This document shows positions 55,888 to 62,102 of a DNA stretch of 64,000 nucleotides, piece by piece. The DNA comes from Nitrospirota bacterium (GTDB taxonomy: Bacteria > Nitrospirota > UBA9217): positions 9,485 through 73,484 of the forward strand of contig CAVWIL010000009.1 in NCBI GenBank assembly GCA_963755045.1. The letters are read 5' to 3'. Position 1 is the first letter of the stretch, and every line of letters starts with the position of its first letter. The notes below the pieces were generated by a model that made no database searches, was not told the DNA's origin, and saw nothing but the letters and a program-made list of their open reading frames with translations. The translations under genes were made by a program, and so were the position numbers.

Positions 55888-57792
55888 TTATTTGAGCTCC
55901 GCAACGGCATCTCCCTCTGCCCTGAGCGCGGGGTTGGAGGTGAACAAGATCACCTGGGTCTTCGCACCCAGGGCGCGAAGGACCTGGCATGCGGCCTTCT
56001 GCCTCGCTGGATCGAATTCTGCGAGCGAATCATCGAGAATGAACGGAAATCGCCTTTTCCCGGCAAGCGCCTCGACCAGACCGGTCCTGAGACAGAAGGT
56101 GATCAGGCTCCTGGTCCCGTGGCTCAGTTCCGAGTAAGCCACCACCGAGTCGTCGTTGGCATGCACGATCGGATCGCCATCATGGCCGGCCTCGAGCCTT
56201 ACATACCTGCCCGCGGTAACTGCAATCAGGCTCCTCTGGGCCGCCGCTTCAACCGCCGGGACAAGCGTCTCCATCTCGATCCCTCCCACCCGGCTTGCGA
56301 TGCTGAGTTCCGCAAGGAATCCACCATGACTGCCGCCTGCCGAAAAATCATCAGAATCTGAGGGCAGATGCTGCGCTTCAGCACCGAAATCCCACGACGT
56401 CCCCGCGGATGCGGCGGATGCTTCGGATTCCAGCCGTTCAATATCCTGACGAATGCTGTAGGTGTCCACATTAAATTGAGCGAGTGCCTGCGCCGCCTTT
56501 TCCAGTTCCACGATCTCCCGCTGCTGATCCTCACACTGCTGCTGGAGAATTTCCAGGGTAAGATCCCCAAGGCTGCGCTGTCGCTGCTCTTCAAGATCGG
56601 CCCTGAGGGAGAGAAAATAGCGGTAGTTCTCTGCCTTTTCTTTAAGCTCGGCCGTCGATGTAGCCATTGTCGAGAGCATATAGGTCGTTAGGGTCGCCCC
56701 TTCCTGTTGAAAACGTTTTTCAAGTTCAGCGAGTTCTTGCTTCAGGTGTTCCTCTTCCTTCAGATACTGCCTGCGCCGCGCATCCTTCCGGGAGCCGAAA
56801 TACCACGCGCCCGCCATCAACGCGAGTGCAAGAAGGACTCCACCGGCCAGGATGTAATAGGCCATGTCCCCGGTCAGCACAAATCCCCCGAGGATGACCG
56901 ACAGGACGCCCAGGACGCAGCCGGTGATGAACAACTTGTCCGAGATAAAGACGAACGGAGGTATTGCCGCCCGCTGCATCTTCAGCCCATCGATCCGTTT
57001 GTTGAGCTCATCGGCATCAGCCAGCTTTTGGCCCAGACGCCGCTCCTGGGCCTCGATGAGCGCGCCAAGGTCATCGGGTATCGCCTCGTACGCCTTGAGC
57101 GCCTTAAGCGATGACTCCAGCTCTGCCTTTTTCCTCCCGAGCTCGTCGAGGGAGGTGGTTTTTTTTCTGTTCTCTTCCAGTGCAAGCTTGACGGATTGAT
57201 ACTTGTACTCGGCATCCGCGGCCTCCTCCGCCTTGCGAAGGGACTCACGAAGTACGGCGAGCCTTTCCTGATTTCCGGAGGTCTTTCGAACTGCGGGTGG
57301 AACCGGCGTGCTCGGCGCCGAACGAAGCAATGCGGCTGAATTAAACCTTCCCGGTCGGACTGGCTGCTCCCGCTGAAAAACAAAAATTCTGGAAAAGTCC
57401 TCTGCGGTAATCCCGGCGGTCAATTCGGCCATGAACCGAGCGGCGCTTTCCCAGTCCTTATGCAGAAGGCTGAATTCCTTGCTCGTTGGATTGTATTGAG
57501 AAATGTTTACGACGCGTTTTGAGAAATCCTGGATGATTCGGTAGTAATCATTGTCAGCGGAACACATCACAAGTGCCGCGCGTGATGCGTCGGGCGTGTG
57601 CCGGGATACCATGCTATCAAGGGCTCCGGCCTGATTGATGGGGAACAGCAGGCGCTGCATGGCGGCCACTGCCGTGGTCTTTCCCGATTCATTACCGGCA
57701 ATGACAAGGTTGAATCCACCCTTGAACCTCAACCGGGTAGGTTCACGAAATCCCCGCACACCTTGCAAAACAAGCTCCACCAGGAACATCAA
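55888..57792 (-). CDS. Rad50/SMC-like (YhaN-type) coiled-coil ATPase with two TM helices
   Basis: Walker A GNESGKTT, long coiled coil, LSHGT signature, FILDD Walker B. Confidence 0.78.
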   Translation of the reverse strand: MMFLVELVLQGVRGFREPTRLRFKGGFNLVIAGNESGKTTAVAAMQRLLFPINQAGALDSMVSRHTPDASRAALVMCSADNDYYRIIQDFSKRVVNISQYNPTSKEFSLLHKDWESAARFMAELTAGITAEDFSRIFVFQREQPVRPGRFNSAALLRSAPSTPVPPAVRKTSGNQERLAVLRESLRKAEEAADAEYKYQSVKLALEENRKKTTSLDELGRKKAELESSLKALKAYEAIPDDLGALIEAQERRLGQKLADADELNKRIDGLKMQRAAIPPFVFISDKLFITGCVLGVLSVILGGFVLTGDMAYYILAGGVLLALALMAGAWYFGSRKDARRRQYLKEEEHLKQELAELEKRFQQEGATLTTYMLSTMATSTAELKEKAENYRYFLSLRADLEEQRQRSLGDLTLEILQQQCEDQQREIVELEKAAQALAQFNVDTYSIRQDIERLESEASAASAGTSWDFGAEAQHLPSDSDDFSAGGSHGGFLAELSIASRVGGIEMETLVPAVEAAAQRSLIAVTAGRYVRLEAGHDGDPIVHANDDSVVAYSELSHGTRSLITFCLRTGLVEALAGKRRFPFILDDSLAEFDPARQKAACQVLRALGAKTQVILFTSNPALRAEGDAVAELK

Positions 57793-57866
57793 TCAGGCTC
57801 CTTTTCTCAATTAATTTGGCACTATAACGCAAGTAGGCTAAAGTTGCAACAGGGAAAACGGCTCCA

Positions 57867-59393
57867 TCACAGCGTCTCCAGCGCCTTCTTGAGCGCCTCG
57901 GCCTTCTGGAGGGTCTCATAGTATTCCTGTTCGGGAACGGAATCCGCAACGATCCCCGCCCCGACCTGGATGTGAGCGATCCCGTCCTTCACGACAAAGG
58001 TCCTGATGATGATGTTCAGGTCCATGTCGCCGGCGTTCGATAGGTACCCGATGGAGCCGGTATAGGGTCCGCGTGCCATGGGTTCAAGCTCGTCGATGAT
58101 CTCCATACAGCGGACTTTGGGTACACCCGTGATCGTGCCTCCCGGGAAAACGGCACGGACCAGGTCGAAGGCATCACGTCCCCGCGCAAGCGTACCCCGG
58201 ACATTCGAGACGATGTGAATAACATGGGAGTAATCCTCCACTGCCATCATCTCGTCCACCCGCACCGTGCCATACTCGCACACCCTGCCCAAGTCATTCC
58301 TCTCGAGATCGAGCAGCATGATGTGCTCCGCTCTCTCCTTTTCGTTCGTCAGGAGCTCCACGGAAAGCGCACTCGTTTCCGTTCCATCCCTTCCCCTCCT
58401 GCGCGTACCCGCGATCGGCCTCGTATCGGCAATACCGTTATAAAGCCGGACCAGACGCTCGGGGGAAGAGCCCACCAGCTGCAGGTCGCCGAAATCGAGG
58501 TACGTGGCAAACGATGATGGATTGATATCTCGCAGAATTGTGTATAAACGCAGCGTGTCCGCATCATCGATCGATGCCGAGAGCCGCTGAGACAGGTTCG
58601 CCTGATAGATGTCCCCTGCCGCAATATATTCCTTGCATTGCACGACCATGGACTCGAATTGGTCTTTCGTCATGTTCGGAGCAAGGATAAAACTCCCCGG
58701 AACGCTTTTTTCAGGGAGCTGAACAGTGCCCTCGTTAACCTTTGCGGCGAGCTTTGAGCTCAGAGCTATAATCTTATTTTTTGCTTCATCATAGAGCCTG
58801 CCCCACTGGTCCCGCTCCGGTTTCCGAAAGCCCATTTCCTGTTCCCGTGCTCCCGGATTGACGATCACCCACGCCTTTTCCAGGATATGATCAAAGGCAA
58901 CAACCATATCCACGAACACGAAATACGCCTCAGGGATGTCCAGCTCAATCCGCGCCCTGCGTGGAAGCTTCTCGATCTGGTGCACAAAATCGTATGAGAA
59001 GAACCCCACTGCACCTCCGGTGAAAGGGGGCAGGCCGTCAACCCGCGTTGTCCGGTAATTGGCGAGAAGCTCACGAAGCTTCACGAGCGGCTTTCGTTTC
59101 ATGGACGCCCGCCTTCCGTATTTGCCTGTGGGCGTGACCGGCAGACTGAGTTCCACATCGTCCCCGCGGGACCGGAAGATCAGGTAGGGTTCCGCCGTAA
59201 CGAACGAATACCGTCCGATCTTGTCGTTCACCCGGGCGCTTTCGAGAAGAACGGGATAGCCTTCCCCCCTGATGGCCTCAAGCGCGGAAAGCGGCGTCAG
59301 TCCCGGCAGGTCGAGTTCGGCTGAAAGGGGCAGCAGTTTCCCGGACTGAACGGCATCGAGAAAATAGTTTTTTGAGGGCTTGATTGTATGCAT
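57867..59393 (-). CDS. Aminodeoxychorismate/anthranilate synthase component I family
   Basis: LLESA, GDIYQANLS, SSPERL, PIAGT, FPGGTITGVPK, GAGIVADS. Confidence 0.92.
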   Translation of the reverse strand: MHTIKPSKNYFLDAVQSGKLLPLSAELDLPGLTPLSALEAIRGEGYPVLLESARVNDKIGRYSFVTAEPYLIFRSRGDDVELSLPVTPTGKYGRRASMKRKPLVKLRELLANYRTTRVDGLPPFTGGAVGFFSYDFVHQIEKLPRRARIELDIPEAYFVFVDMVVAFDHILEKAWVIVNPGAREQEMGFRKPERDQWGRLYDEAKNKIIALSSKLAAKVNEGTVQLPEKSVPGSFILAPNMTKDQFESMVVQCKEYIAAGDIYQANLSQRLSASIDDADTLRLYTILRDINPSSFATYLDFGDLQLVGSSPERLVRLYNGIADTRPIAGTRRRGRDGTETSALSVELLTNEKERAEHIMLLDLERNDLGRVCEYGTVRVDEMMAVEDYSHVIHIVSNVRGTLARGRDAFDLVRAVFPGGTITGVPKVRCMEIIDELEPMARGPYTGSIGYLSNAGDMDLNIIIRTFVVKDGIAHIQVGAGIVADSVPEQEYYETLQKAEALKKALETL

Positions 59394-59536
59394 GCTGAAA
59401 TGGGGAAATTCTAAAGGCAATTCATTAACTGGTCAAGACAATTCTCAAAAAAAATTCCACACAATAACGAAGGATGTGGTATACTATAATTAGAAAGACG
59501 TAGTGATCTTTCTAAAGAAACGCACGAAGTTCACAG

Positions 59537-59849
59537 GGCGTTGCCGGACCATCACCGACTAGGTGTAGAGATGATAGCCCGTTTTGAGGGGAATAAGGCA
59601 CCGTGTTGGACAGAGAGCCGAAACCGGTAAGAAGTCTGCAAGTTGAGCGGTCATTCACTGGTTGCTTCACAGGCTTCTATAAACATGGAAGAGCCGAAAG
59701 CCCCGAAGTCGAAGGATAGTGCGGGAAGAAAGGAACAATGAGCTTCACAGGGTCTGCTGAGCAGAGCCATAGAAGCAGCCATTGAAATCCCGCAGAGAAT
59801 CCCCGGCTCAACGGAATATCAGTAACGGTCCGCAGGCAACGCCTTTTTT
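59537..59849 (+). ncRNA. Candidate structured non-coding RNA, family not recognised
   Basis: Paired termini GGCGTTGCC/GGCAACGCC plus T-run, nested stems, repeated modules, upstream TATACT/TATAAT box. Confidence 0.55.
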
Positions 59850-59974
59850 ATTTTCATCCTCTCTCCTGGGGGCCACCCTAGCTCCCGATACGGGAATCAC
59901 GCTGAAACACTTAATCTTTCGCTCGACAAGAATAGAAAATTATTTTAAACTGTATCTTCATAAGGAGATCGGCC

Positions 59975-60367
59975 ATGAACCATGCCATGGACGTTAAGAT
60001 CTATTACGAGGACACGGACTGCGGCGGAGTCGTATACTATGCCAACTACCTGCGCTACATGGAGCGTGCGCGGACCGAGTACCTTGCCTCCAGGGGCCAT
60101 TCGGTCAAAATGCTGATGGATCAAGGCACGATCTTCATGGTGTTCCGCGTCGAGATCGACTACAAAGCGCCGGCCCGTTACGGAGACACGATCGAGATCG
60201 AAACATGGGTCAGAGACGCGACACGGGCCACGATGATATTCGAGCATGTGATGCGGGAAAAGATGTCCCGTCGCGTTTTGGTCGAATGCAGGGCAAAGGT
60301 CGTTGCTGTCGATGCGAACGCAAGACCTAAACGCCTGCCCGACGAGTACGTGGAAAAGATAAAGTGA
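59975..60367 (+). CDS. YbgC/FadM family acyl-CoA thioesterase
   Basis: IYYEDTDCGGVVYYANYLRYMERARTE. Confidence 0.93.
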   Translation: MNHAMDVKIYYEDTDCGGVVYYANYLRYMERARTEYLASRGHSVKMLMDQGTIFMVFRVEIDYKAPARYGDTIEIETWVRDATRATMIFEHVMREKMSRRVLVECRAKVVAVDANARPKRLPDEYVEKIK

Positions 60368-60467
60368 CATTCTCTTTTACGAAGGAGAAAATGAATCGCC
60401 GTTACTCAACCACCGCCTCCTGCTTTCTTTGCGGGTTCACCGGTATGTGTGATAAAAGATACTGTCC

Positions 60468-61199
60468 ATGACTTCCTCAACCCTTGACAGCATCTCGCTC
60501 CGCAACGCCGGCGTGGTGAGCATTGCTCAACCGAAAAAAGGTTTCCGTTTTACACTGGACAGTCTTCTTCTCGCCGATTTTTGCAGCATTAAACCTCTTT
60601 GCCGCATTCTCGAACCGGGCTCGGGAACCGGGATCATTTCAATTCTGCTTGCACGAAAATTTCCAAAAGCGCGGATCATTGCCTCTGAAATAGAACCACA
60701 GGCATTCAACCTCCTTTGCCAAAATATACAGCATAATGGTCTTGTTGATATTATCATGCCTCTTGAGCAGGACATTCGATATCTGGGCCGGTCTATTGCG
60801 CCGGACTTTTTTGATGTCATTATCGCCAATCCACCCTATATCAAATACGGGACCGGTCGAAAAAGCCCCTCCCGGGAACGACAAACCGCACGTCAGGACG
60901 TGACCACATCGCTAGCGCACTGGCTCGACCTCCAGACCTTTTTAAAGGACAAGGGCAAATATTTCCTCGTCTTTCCCGCAAGCCGCGCAGCAGAAATGAT
61001 GTCATTATTGCGAAAGAGAGGGATGGAACCAAAGCGCCTCCGGTGTGTGCATCCCTTTCAGGAAAAACCTGCGTCGCTTGTGTTGATTGAAGCAATAAAA
61101 ACAAAGGGGGTTGGTCTTGAAATCCTGCCGCCGCTGGTCGTTCATGAACAGGGTGGTGGCTATTCGAAAGAGATGCGGGAGATATACGGGCTGGGATGA
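60468..61199 (+). CDS. tRNA1(Val) adenine-N6 methyltransferase-like (YfiC/YabB family)
   Basis: QPKKGFRFTLDSLLL, EPGSGTG, NPPY. Confidence 0.85.
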   Translation: MTSSTLDSISLRNAGVVSIAQPKKGFRFTLDSLLLADFCSIKPLCRILEPGSGTGIISILLARKFPKARIIASEIEPQAFNLLCQNIQHNGLVDIIMPLEQDIRYLGRSIAPDFFDVIIANPPYIKYGTGRKSPSRERQTARQDVTTSLAHWLDLQTFLKDKGKYFLVFPASRAAEMMSLLRKRGMEPKRLRCVHPFQEKPASLVLIEAIKTKGVGLEILPPLVVHEQGGGYSKEMREIYGLG

Positions 61200-61572
61200 A
61201 GCCGCCCAGGACAATATTGTGTCTAAAGACGCCTTCATCAGGAATTCAGCCCATGCTCATCCCTTTTTTTTGTAACTGCCCAGGTCGGTTGCACTGCGCA
61301 GTCGCAATTCGAGATCGCTTGCACAGCTTTGAAATTGTTACCATAAATGCGACCAGGGTATAAGGTTTAGCCATTAAAAAAAGGGGGAATTGTGGATATA
61401 ATGCGAAAAGGACTATTTTAATGCCAAACAAAGGTTGCTTTTATTTAAAAAAAGTGAGATAATGATAAATATAAGAATGTAAAAGGTCACAGAAGATCAA
61501 ACCAGAAAGGCCACAAAGACAGGCGTCTTTGCGGCTTTTCCATTTGGGATGTTATCATCAGAAAGGGGCACC

Positions 61573-61959
61573 ATGGCGATTAAACAAAATTACAAGGAAA
61601 AGCTGGAATTGAAGAGAAATATCATGCTTGCTGCCGGTCTGGTCTCCGAACGGTTTCCTGCGGTTGCCAACATCATGTTTCGCATGACCTATTACCAGAG
61701 GACGGCGGACCCTATCCTGATGAAGCGCACGATAAGTTTTTCTCCAACTAATTATGCCTGTTTTCATCTTGAATGTATGCGGGAAGAATGCTCTGACGGC
61801 GGTTTTGACCTGACGCCGGTGGTTGCCAGTCTGGTTAAAAACAACAAGAAATCTGTATCAGGCAAAATCGTCTGCAATGGGAAAAGCGATGATCTCCGAC
61901 ACGGCCATGCCAGTATCGCCTATGAGGTCAGTGTCCAGTACAACAAGCCTCCTAAATAA
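61573..61959 (+). CDS. Hypothetical protein
   Basis: 128 aa with GLVSERFP and CMREECSDGGFDL; purine-rich RBS. Confidence 0.7.
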   Translation: MAIKQNYKEKLELKRNIMLAAGLVSERFPAVANIMFRMTYYQRTADPILMKRTISFSPTNYACFHLECMREECSDGGFDLTPVVASLVKNNKKSVSGKIVCNGKSDDLRHGHASIAYEVSVQYNKPPK

Positions 61960-62102
61960 GGCGTATCTCTTCCTTCCCCGCAGGTTCCTCAAAATCTACA
62001 TTTCTCCTCCCCGCGGTCATATCCGGGCCGCGTGCTGTTTTTCTCTTGCCTCTTGACTTTCTGCTACCCTTTGCCTATTCTCTTTAACATAATCCGTTAA
62101 CG

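Follow-up and report, generated by a model that had tools for sequence, protein, structure and literature searches.

The window (the whole 64,000-nt stretch of Nitrospirota DNA analysed here) almost certainly carries, at positions 59503-59849 of the plus strand, a real, expressed and structured stand-alone RNA gene with a product of about 340 nt. The gene lies between a TrpE/PabB-family gene on the minus strand (57867-59420; NCBIfam trpE_most 480 bits and PabB-clade2 379 bits, both under the cut-offs) and a YbgC-type thioesterase gene on the plus strand (59975-60367). Its elements, in order, are an extended -10 promoter, the 5' leader, a body of 313 nt that is closed by a helix we call P1, and a U-run. 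Taken as a whole, the locus probably encodes a stable, trans-acting structured non-coding RNA from a gene whose anatomy resembles that of an rRNA unit, the mature RNA perhaps serving as a protein-binding scaffold or sequestering RNA. The original prediction had already proposed a stand-alone small RNA, a view borne out by the gene's own promoter, a discrete transcript, a variable downstream gene and strong covariation; the leader motif common to the rRNA operon, a second paralogous type and the very high expression were absent from it.

The plus strand of 59530-59855 folds with a minimum free energy of -121.9 kcal/mol (z = -5.6), a value equalled by none of 100 shuffled sequences; the folding z-score of the minus strand is -3.6. 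A cmscan search with permissive filters against all 4227 families of Rfam 15 returned no match at E<=1 in 57000-62000, and the same result was obtained for six loci of a paralogous type (type 2, described below), so that the novelty the original prediction had made dependent on this search stands. The models for OLE, ROOL, GOLLD, HEARO, raiA, the riboswitches and the T-boxes match neither the window region nor the six type-2 loci, and ARAGORN found no tmRNA or tRNA at the locus. Consistent with the earlier judgement that the RNA is not tmRNA, RNase P RNA, SRP RNA or 6S, all four genes were found elsewhere in the same genome above their cut-offs (196.5, 269.5, 73 and 104.5 bits, respectively). 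The rrn operon of this genome is also complete (16S 1-1533, 23S 1-2925 and 5S 1-120 of the models), and the RNA shows no similarity to it, the best blastn-short match being a 12-nt word with an E value of 0.16. A search of the full-text literature, with subscription journals and supplements outside its scope, found no prior description. Because no Rfam family matches and no description was found in the literature, we rate the RNA family as new. The window genome carries one copy of the RNA. A 15-codon open reading frame starting at the ATG at 59739 was rejected as a coding gene, since its start codon is conserved in the genus alone.

For the structural analysis we collected 58 distinct type-1 copies; a branched fold with about 85 base pairs is supported by the covariation among them. 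The body is organized as a rod (P1-P1b-P3-P4) with a side hairpin, P2, and then splits into two long irregular arms, A and B. In a structure-blind MAFFT alignment 89.1% of 4828 cells pair, compared with 33-43% when the partners are slid by 1-3 columns; both sides change in 51 of 84 pairs, and none of 500 shuffles reaches any of the five measures. A model-fitted alignment of 65 sequences, which is biased towards the model, gave 84.8% pairing against 33-42% for slid partners, and in this same alignment, with its lean towards the model, both sides change in 66 of 73 pairs. The excess of G-U over A-C cells (365 versus 179) identifies the plus strand as the RNA and, together with the compensatory changes, indicates that selection acts at the RNA level; the U-run and the promoter agree with this choice of strand. 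The search for homologues and covariation that had been suggested at the outset yielded 58 copies with strong compensatory change.

Close inspection of the rod confirms the pairing of the ends as it had been predicted. GGCGTTGCC (59537-59545) pairs with GGCAACGCC (59835-59843) to form P1, a helix of 9 bp, 7 of them G-C, and GGACC (59546-59550) pairs with GGTCC (59827-59831) to form the 5-bp P1b, while six T residues (59844-59849) follow directly after P1. Six of the P1 pairs do not vary among the 58 copies, and another is U-A in 43 and U-G in 15; P1b covaries (A-U in 40, G-C in 14 and U-A in 2). Since our covariance model (R2) spans only 59571-59820, the MAFFT alignment was used to assess P1 and P2. 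In that alignment the P2 hairpin (CACC-GACTA-GGTG, 59553-59565) has 96.6% of its cells paired, and three of its four pairs change on both sides. P3 (TGATA/TATCA, 59572-59576/59817-59821) covaries among TGATA/TATCA, TTTAA/TTAAA and TGGTA/TACCA, and P4 (CCGTT/AACGG, 59579-59583/59810-59814) is swapped for AGGCT/AGCCT in copies L099 and L101. The 3' strands of P4, P3, P1b and P1 (AACGG, TATCA, GGTCC and GGCAACGCC) all fall within 59810-59843 of the plus strand.

Arm A (59588-59704, plus strand) comprises helices P5 (59588-91/59701-04), P6 (59597-99/59693-95), P7 (59601-07/59682-88), P8 with a bulged G (59612-19/59672-78) and P9 (59622-27/59658-63), all of which have pairs that change on both sides, with 75-91% of cells paired. 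Beyond P9, a distal stem (59634-39/59647-52) presents a conserved 7-nt loop, AAGTTGA (59640-59646), at the tip of the arm, the nucleotides of which are near-invariant columns. Conserved, purine-rich internal loops, GGAAGAGCCGAAAG among them, also lie in this arm. Arm B (59707-59808, plus strand) comprises P10 (59707-11/59804-08, with GGAT/ATCC at 59714-17/59799-802), P11 (GCGGG/CCCGC, 59721-25/59789-93), P11b (CAATG/CATTG, 59736-40/59780-84) and the P12 hairpin (59742-46/59772-76, with an inner stem at 59750-57/59761-68); compensatory changes occur in each helix and 74-96% of cells are paired. One clade has an extra hairpin inserted in the P11/P11b loop. The terminal loops of the fold are AAGTTGA, GACTA and one variable loop of 3-5 nt.

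The inner part of the fold agrees only partly with the original prediction. The two complementarities that it had read as nested stems, GTTGAGC/GCTCAAC (59642/59806) and TGCGGGA/TCCCGCA (59720/59788), are both present, but the former was rejected as a nested stem because it overlaps the covarying helices P4 and P10. It joins the P9 loop to the P10/P4 junction and is pairable in 88% of cells, a figure equalled by 444 of 500 shuffles, and the complementarity is due to conservation alone, with no covariation; a contact between the P9 loop and the P10/P4 junction, as a tertiary or an alternative pairing, is possible. Similarly, the 10-mer GCTTCACAGG, described earlier as part of a repeated module, is a real 10-nt repeat in the window genome (59664 and 59742), and GAGCCGAAA is present at 59615 and 59691, but the two modules are not structurally equivalent: the second copy of the 10-mer forms P12, whereas the region of the first pairs as P7 and P8, and the GCTT of this first copy is absent in 14 of 58 homologues. 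A second module fold at 59664-59701 was accordingly rejected as unconserved.

The RNA is a discrete and strongly expressed transcript, as seen in metatranscriptome contigs. Part of a 461-nt query, two thirds of which is the RNA, was found in 19 RNA-labelled runs from 19 studies (29-41% of sampled words), which cover freshwater, groundwater, sediment, soil and ice. Metatranscriptome contigs from four runs of four studies, placed on 59300-60100, cover the RNA from 59503 to 59842 and bear out the discrete transcript that read mapping had been proposed to look for. They start at 59503, 59504 and 59506, and Illumina adapter sequence abuts the RNA at 59503 (run X1), 59506 (run X4) and 59842 (run X4). 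In one run a single 331-nt contig extends across 59504-59833, placing leader and body on the same contig. All bins before 59489, including those of the pabB-like gene, are empty in the four runs; the 125 nt from the U-run to ybgC have no RNA cover in any of them, and the bins from 59867 onwards are empty except in run X4, which has a depth of 1-4 inside ybgC (60002-60082). These empty flanks serve as a silent control for the contig cover, which in itself carries no strand, exact ends or level. Because contigs of related strains are summed (very large in run X6), the depth figures were kept out of the expression ranking. One contig joint in run X4 skips 59556-59624.

We next describe the distribution of the RNA, as seen in DNA searches that used single sequences as queries. 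Among 41 relatives the element was found in 20, comprising 19 of the 24 examined from the window's family and none of the 16 from ten other families of the phylum; the matches run from query position 57 to 375, the exact extent from P1 to the U-run. Of the 64 genomes in the window's order, BLAST detected the RNA in 57 (30 of the 32 high-quality ones), and six of the seven negative genomes are at most 90% complete. This order contains one family only. R2, a model of the core only (250 positions and 73 pairs; an earlier core model with an automatic consensus held just 19 pairs and was set aside for it), was searched with strict filters and matched 27 of 27 sampled family genomes, including one missed by the DNA search, and none of 123 other Nitrospirota genomes across 21 families. 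A pattern scan of one genome per species of bacteria and archaea returned 101 stretches; nhmmer confirmed 38 of the 80 that carried titles, all of them titled Nitrospirota, Nitrospirae, Nitrospiria or Nitrospiraceae, and none of the 42 titled records from other taxa, which are chance pattern matches. With a looser pattern, none of 20 matches in viral contigs was real, while at least five were confirmed among the 121 metagenome matches listed (four of type 1 and one of type 2). As far as searched, then, the family is restricted within these genomes to one uncultured Nitrospirota order, a little-studied groundwater and sediment lineage in which the RNA is nearly universal and from which it assembles even in small metatranscriptomes. 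The element is single-copy and syntenic in most genomes, and some have 2-3 tandem copies of mixed types.

Upstream of the body, a consensus scan predicts a promoter at 59456-59490 (plus strand), with a -35-like TCCACA (59456-59461) and an extended -10 element, TGG-TATACT (59477-59485, TGGTATACT), overlapped by TATAAT (59485-59490); TATACT at 59480 and TATAAT at 59485 are thus where they had been placed earlier. In 56 of 58 copies P1 is preceded by an extended -10 of the form TGnTAnnnT, which is found at -54 to -81 in those type-1 copies that have one and at -31/-32 in two divergent tandem copies. The 5' leader (59503-59536, plus strand), which seems to be retained on the RNA, contains the boxA-like sequence GATCTTTCTAAAG at 59505-59517. 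Its motif reads TCTTTCT in the window's genus and TCTTTGA in most relatives. NTCTTT occurs in 55 of 58 leaders, starting 24-38 nt before P1 in 54 and 50 nt before it in one, against an average of 1.6 and a maximum of 5 in shuffled leaders, and the core NTCTTTGA (TCTTTGA) is present in 42 of 58. The three leaders without the motif belong to extra tandem copies. In many copies a hairpin directly precedes the motif.

The same core recurs in the rRNA operon of the lineage. In four of four genomes (the window genome and three relatives) the rrn leader carries GGTCTTTGAAAAC after the promoter, as well as GGTCTTTGAAAACTAAATAGGTGC, which is also located after the promoter, about 125 nt before 16S, and is complementary to the sequence following 16S, giving a leader-trailer helix; the rrn spacer carries GTTCTTTGACAAC and GTTCTTTGACAACTGAATA ahead of 23S. 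The rrn leader and the pre-23S spacer are the textbook positions of boxA. Given that the same core stands at these positions of the lineage's own rrn, the leader motif of the RNA corresponds to boxA by sequence and position, and it is likely to be a genuine boxA element. The gammaproteobacterial boxA consensus is given as GYTCTTTAANA (PMC5725501). The window's genus deviates from the common motif, with TCTTTCTAAA in place of TCTTTGAAA, and the motif is short.

This anatomy leads us to infer a gene organized as an rRNA unit in miniature. As in precursor rRNA units, a strong promoter is followed, often after a hairpin, by a boxA-like NTCTTTGA whose core is identical to that of the lineage's own rrn leader and spacer and, about 16 nt later, by the 5' strand of a long-range helix around a structured body. 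There are also clear differences: the body is 290 nt long and has no similarity to rRNA, the closing helix measures 9+5 bp rather than forming a long RNase III stem, and the leader seems to be retained. In addition, since the U-run comes directly after it, the closing helix would terminate transcription and not be processed.

These features suggest how the RNA may be made. Transcription would start at the strong extended -10 promoter, and the boxA-type element of the leader would load NusB/NusE and other Nus factors onto RNA polymerase, boxA being described as both necessary and sufficient for the rRNA antitermination complex to assemble. The modified polymerase would then transcribe the untranslated body while shielded from Rho, a protection by the boxA-like leader that we propose by analogy. 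For rRNA, Wahl and co-workers have put forward that NusB-bound boxA holds boxC, a leader strand located 18-19 nt downstream, at the RNA exit so that it pairs with the trailer once this emerges (PMC10250234). By the same logic, tethering would hold the 5' strand of P1, which starts about 16 nt past the leader motif, near the RNA exit channel until the 3' strand emerges some 290 nt later, at which point P1 would close and, with U6, both terminate transcription and cap the two ends of the RNA. We put the chances of this tethered closure a little below even. The T-run (T6, 59844-59849, plus strand) is at least 90% conserved across the 58 type-1 copies, no local terminator hairpin was found near it, and P1 with the U-run is the sole terminator-like signal; as a putative intrinsic terminator, the 9-bp, G-C-rich P1 stands immediately before T6, where the RNA cover ends, but its two strands are 290 nt apart. 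Termination by a helix of such span is unusual. The 3' end could instead stem from trimming back to P1. If the model is correct, boxA-tethered closure of a terminator with a 290-nt 'loop' would be a new mechanism for terminating and folding a transcript.

The Nus/boxA machinery has been seen as reserved for rRNA, a few mRNAs and the CRISPR arrays of Enterobacteria being the exceptions; in these arrays boxA elements lie in the leaders. What such cases share with the present one is a transcript other than rRNA whose leader has a boxA-like sequence; here, in contrast, the motif precedes a compact structured non-coding RNA at a fixed distance from its long-range closing helix. The boxA of the suhB 5' UTR is described as regulating that mRNA in Enterobacteria (PMC5725501), and the same survey reports that non-rRNA targets exist and leaves non-coding RNAs out of consideration (PMC5725501). 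The layout of the gene suggests that the machinery may also serve a compact non-coding RNA, and that tethering of a 5' strand may close a long-range helix that doubles as a terminator.

In six genomes R2 also gave full-length but weak matches (29-45 bits), all at unlinked loci; these define type 2, and the family has at least two paralogous types. The type-2 RNAs are 293-300 nt long and retain P1 (GGCGTTGC/GCAACGCC), a 7-bp P4 (CCGTTGA/TCAACGG) and the junction sequence. Their genes have their own promoters, with a -10 box immediately upstream of P1 and no leader motif, a separate canonical terminator hairpin downstream, and unrelated, variable neighbours. Because the type-2 genes and three extra tandem copies among the 58 lack the motif yet have P1, the motif is not needed for folding in every copy. 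Because P1 is invariant in both types, its sequence matters beyond termination, the simplest reading being that it is recognized by a protein.

For the function of the mature RNA we consider a small number of candidate readings. Its abundance, the invariant sequence of P1 and the conservation of the internal loops and the 7-nt loop make it a candidate protein-binding scaffold or sequestering RNA, which we hold as a tentative interpretation. A further-reaching and rather unlikely extension is that this lineage has added the RNA to its core machinery of gene expression; the rRNA antitermination complex would make it, and it would act with ribosomes or their assembly. The lineage consists of very slow-growing subsurface bacteria, and a ribonucleoprotein storing Nus factors or ribosomal proteins, or titrating them, for example, could then couple rRNA synthesis to slow subsurface growth.

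Two more specific roles are possible, each of them doubtful. In the first, the RNA would sequester RNA polymerase in the manner of 6S or Ms1, mimicking nucleic acid in the cleft during slow growth. Like these, the new RNA is abundant and stable, its 5' and 3' ends pair, its helices are long and imperfect, and its size is similar to that of Ms1 of mycobacteria, which is about 300 nt. Nevertheless, RF00013 has no match at the locus, the canonical 6S gene is already present elsewhere in the genome, and the fold is three-way branched rather than a rod with one central bubble, no such bubble having been identified. In the second, for which the odds are similarly poor, the RNA would titrate Nus factors or ribosomal proteins, binding NusB/S10 or further proteins that bind rRNA, and so feed back on rRNA synthesis or ribosome assembly. 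The 331-nt contig unites the motif-bearing leader with the body, the motif has the same core as in rrn, and the bulged 14-bp P1 plus P1b looks too short for removal of the leader by RNase III. Such titration would leave unexplained the 313-nt body, where most of the conservation lies, and is at odds with the leaderless type-2 paralogues and with the lack of rRNA similarity beyond a 12-nt word. A bacterial Y RNA, bound by Ro, is unlikely because the TROVE protein (PF05731) was not found in the window genome (86% complete; this genome only), where controls were positive.

A role in cis is very improbable. The RNA sits between two genes, ends in a terminator-like signal and keeps its pabB-like neighbour at 19 of 20 loci, all of which would suit a regulatory leader, a riboswitch or, as the original prediction had suggested, a tandem aptamer for the thioesterase gene, or else an element acting on the divergent pabB-like gene. 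Yet ybgC (with a methyltransferase gene) is downstream at only 7 of 20 loci, the downstream gene otherwise varying, and the RNA cover stops at the U-run, with ybgC reached in a single run at a depth of 1-4; with a variable downstream gene and a discrete transcript, we exclude a cis-acting leader and find the aptamer unsupported. As for pabB, the RNA lies on the opposite strand with no overlap of the pabB transcript, the ratio of G-U to A-C cells speaks against the pabB strand, and type-2 copies stand beside unrelated genes.

The remaining two explanations are less credible still. Several GGA motifs had been noted, and nine GGA triplets occur between 59546 and 59813; the RNA is also abundant, as expected of a CsrA/RsmA-type sponge. 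Such a sponge is excluded by the absence of its protein: with control genomes positive, CsrA (PF02599) turned up in one of the 64 family genomes, in none of the 32 of high quality and not in the window genome (86% complete). The conserved GGA motifs, too, belong to helices and internal loops rather than to hairpin loops. Finally, a DNA-level element (such as a MITE, or a recombination site bearing terminal inverted repeats) or a detached rRNA fragment, to which the invariant terminal inverted repeats, the 2-3 tandem copies in some genomes and the rRNA-like leader might point, is scarcely compatible with a single-copy, syntenic locus in most genomes, with compensatory changes and a G-U excess, with expression as a discrete RNA, with a full-length rrn operon that has no similarity to it and with the failure of all 20 viral pattern matches.

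In its general character the RNA resembles OLE, ROOL, GOLLD, raiA and HEARO, which are large bacterial non-coding RNAs of unknown function, all represented in Rfam: it too is large, ornate, lineage-restricted, strongly covarying and highly expressed, with no obvious function. Few such RNAs are known, and each has opened a new line of research. The present RNA differs in that their Rfam models match neither the window nor the type-2 loci, in its phylum (Nitrospirota) and in lacking a signature protein gene linked to it, of the kind of oapA or IscB; to our knowledge, a boxA-type leader is not a feature of any of these classes. It is a candidate for structure determination and for a search for partners.

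The rRNA-unit model leaves the conserved TrpE/PabB-family neighbour unaccounted for. This divergent gene, at 65-87% identity, flanks 19 of 20 loci, the window's own included, and the twentieth has a relative at 41%; the pairing may reflect back-to-back promoters or a real link between the two genes.

In the rRNA operons of this lineage, whose genes are arranged in the order 16S, tRNA, tRNA, 23S and 5S, the boxA region of the leader (GGTCTTTGAAAACTAAATAGGTGC) is almost perfectly complementary to the sequence located directly 3' of the 16S gene (GCACCTATTTAGTTTTGAAGGACC), both in the source genome of the window (L335/L340) and at loci L333, L334 and L336. BoxA itself therefore lies within the 16S leader-trailer helix. 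A boxA-like motif (GTTCTTTGA, GTTCTTTCA or GATCTTTGA) is also present in 17 of the 30 family genomes examined at the gene for RNase P RNA, 10–14 nt ahead of its 5' end (L021, on contig 2 of the source genome, and L341–L369). The lineage may also use a boxA leader for the synthesis of RNase P RNA. In the source genome, the 6S, tmRNA and SRP genes show no such motif in the 120 nt preceding them.

In the window's genus, the boxA-like motif in the leader of the structured RNA is complementary to a segment located just upstream (AGAAAGA...TCTTTCT, window 59492–59513), a pairing that could make the motif inaccessible in transcripts starting before 59492. The RNA contigs begin at 59503, that is, within this hairpin.

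The internal loop of arm B carries an additional short hairpin (GGCC-loop-GGCC, columns 180–195 of the alignment of RNA copies, A3) in one clade (L036, L037, L050, L051, L053, L054, L058, L059 and L082), and such a stem of variable length is typical of the behaviour of structured RNAs. In arm A, a few metatranscriptome contigs (runs X4 and X6) skip 67–91 nt (window 59556–59624 and 59597–59689); arm A may be shorter in the relatives that gave rise to these contigs, or the joins may be assembly artefacts.

The type-2 paralogue, 293–300 nt long (L182–L187, L264 and L018:553–854), shares P1 and P4 with type 1, is leaderless and has its own terminator. The genes surrounding it differ from locus to locus. 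Around 400 nt downstream of the copy in L183, the start of an ORF resembles a TnpB/OrfB transposase-associated protein, a proximity that is probably coincidental.

Directly downstream of the divergent pabB-like neighbour (57867–59420, minus strand), a gene on the same strand (55888–57792) encodes a 634-residue protein that has a P-loop at its N terminus, long stretches resembling coiled coils and only weak NCBIfam matches, to SMC-related (E = 4e-8) and Rad50 (E = 3e-6) families.
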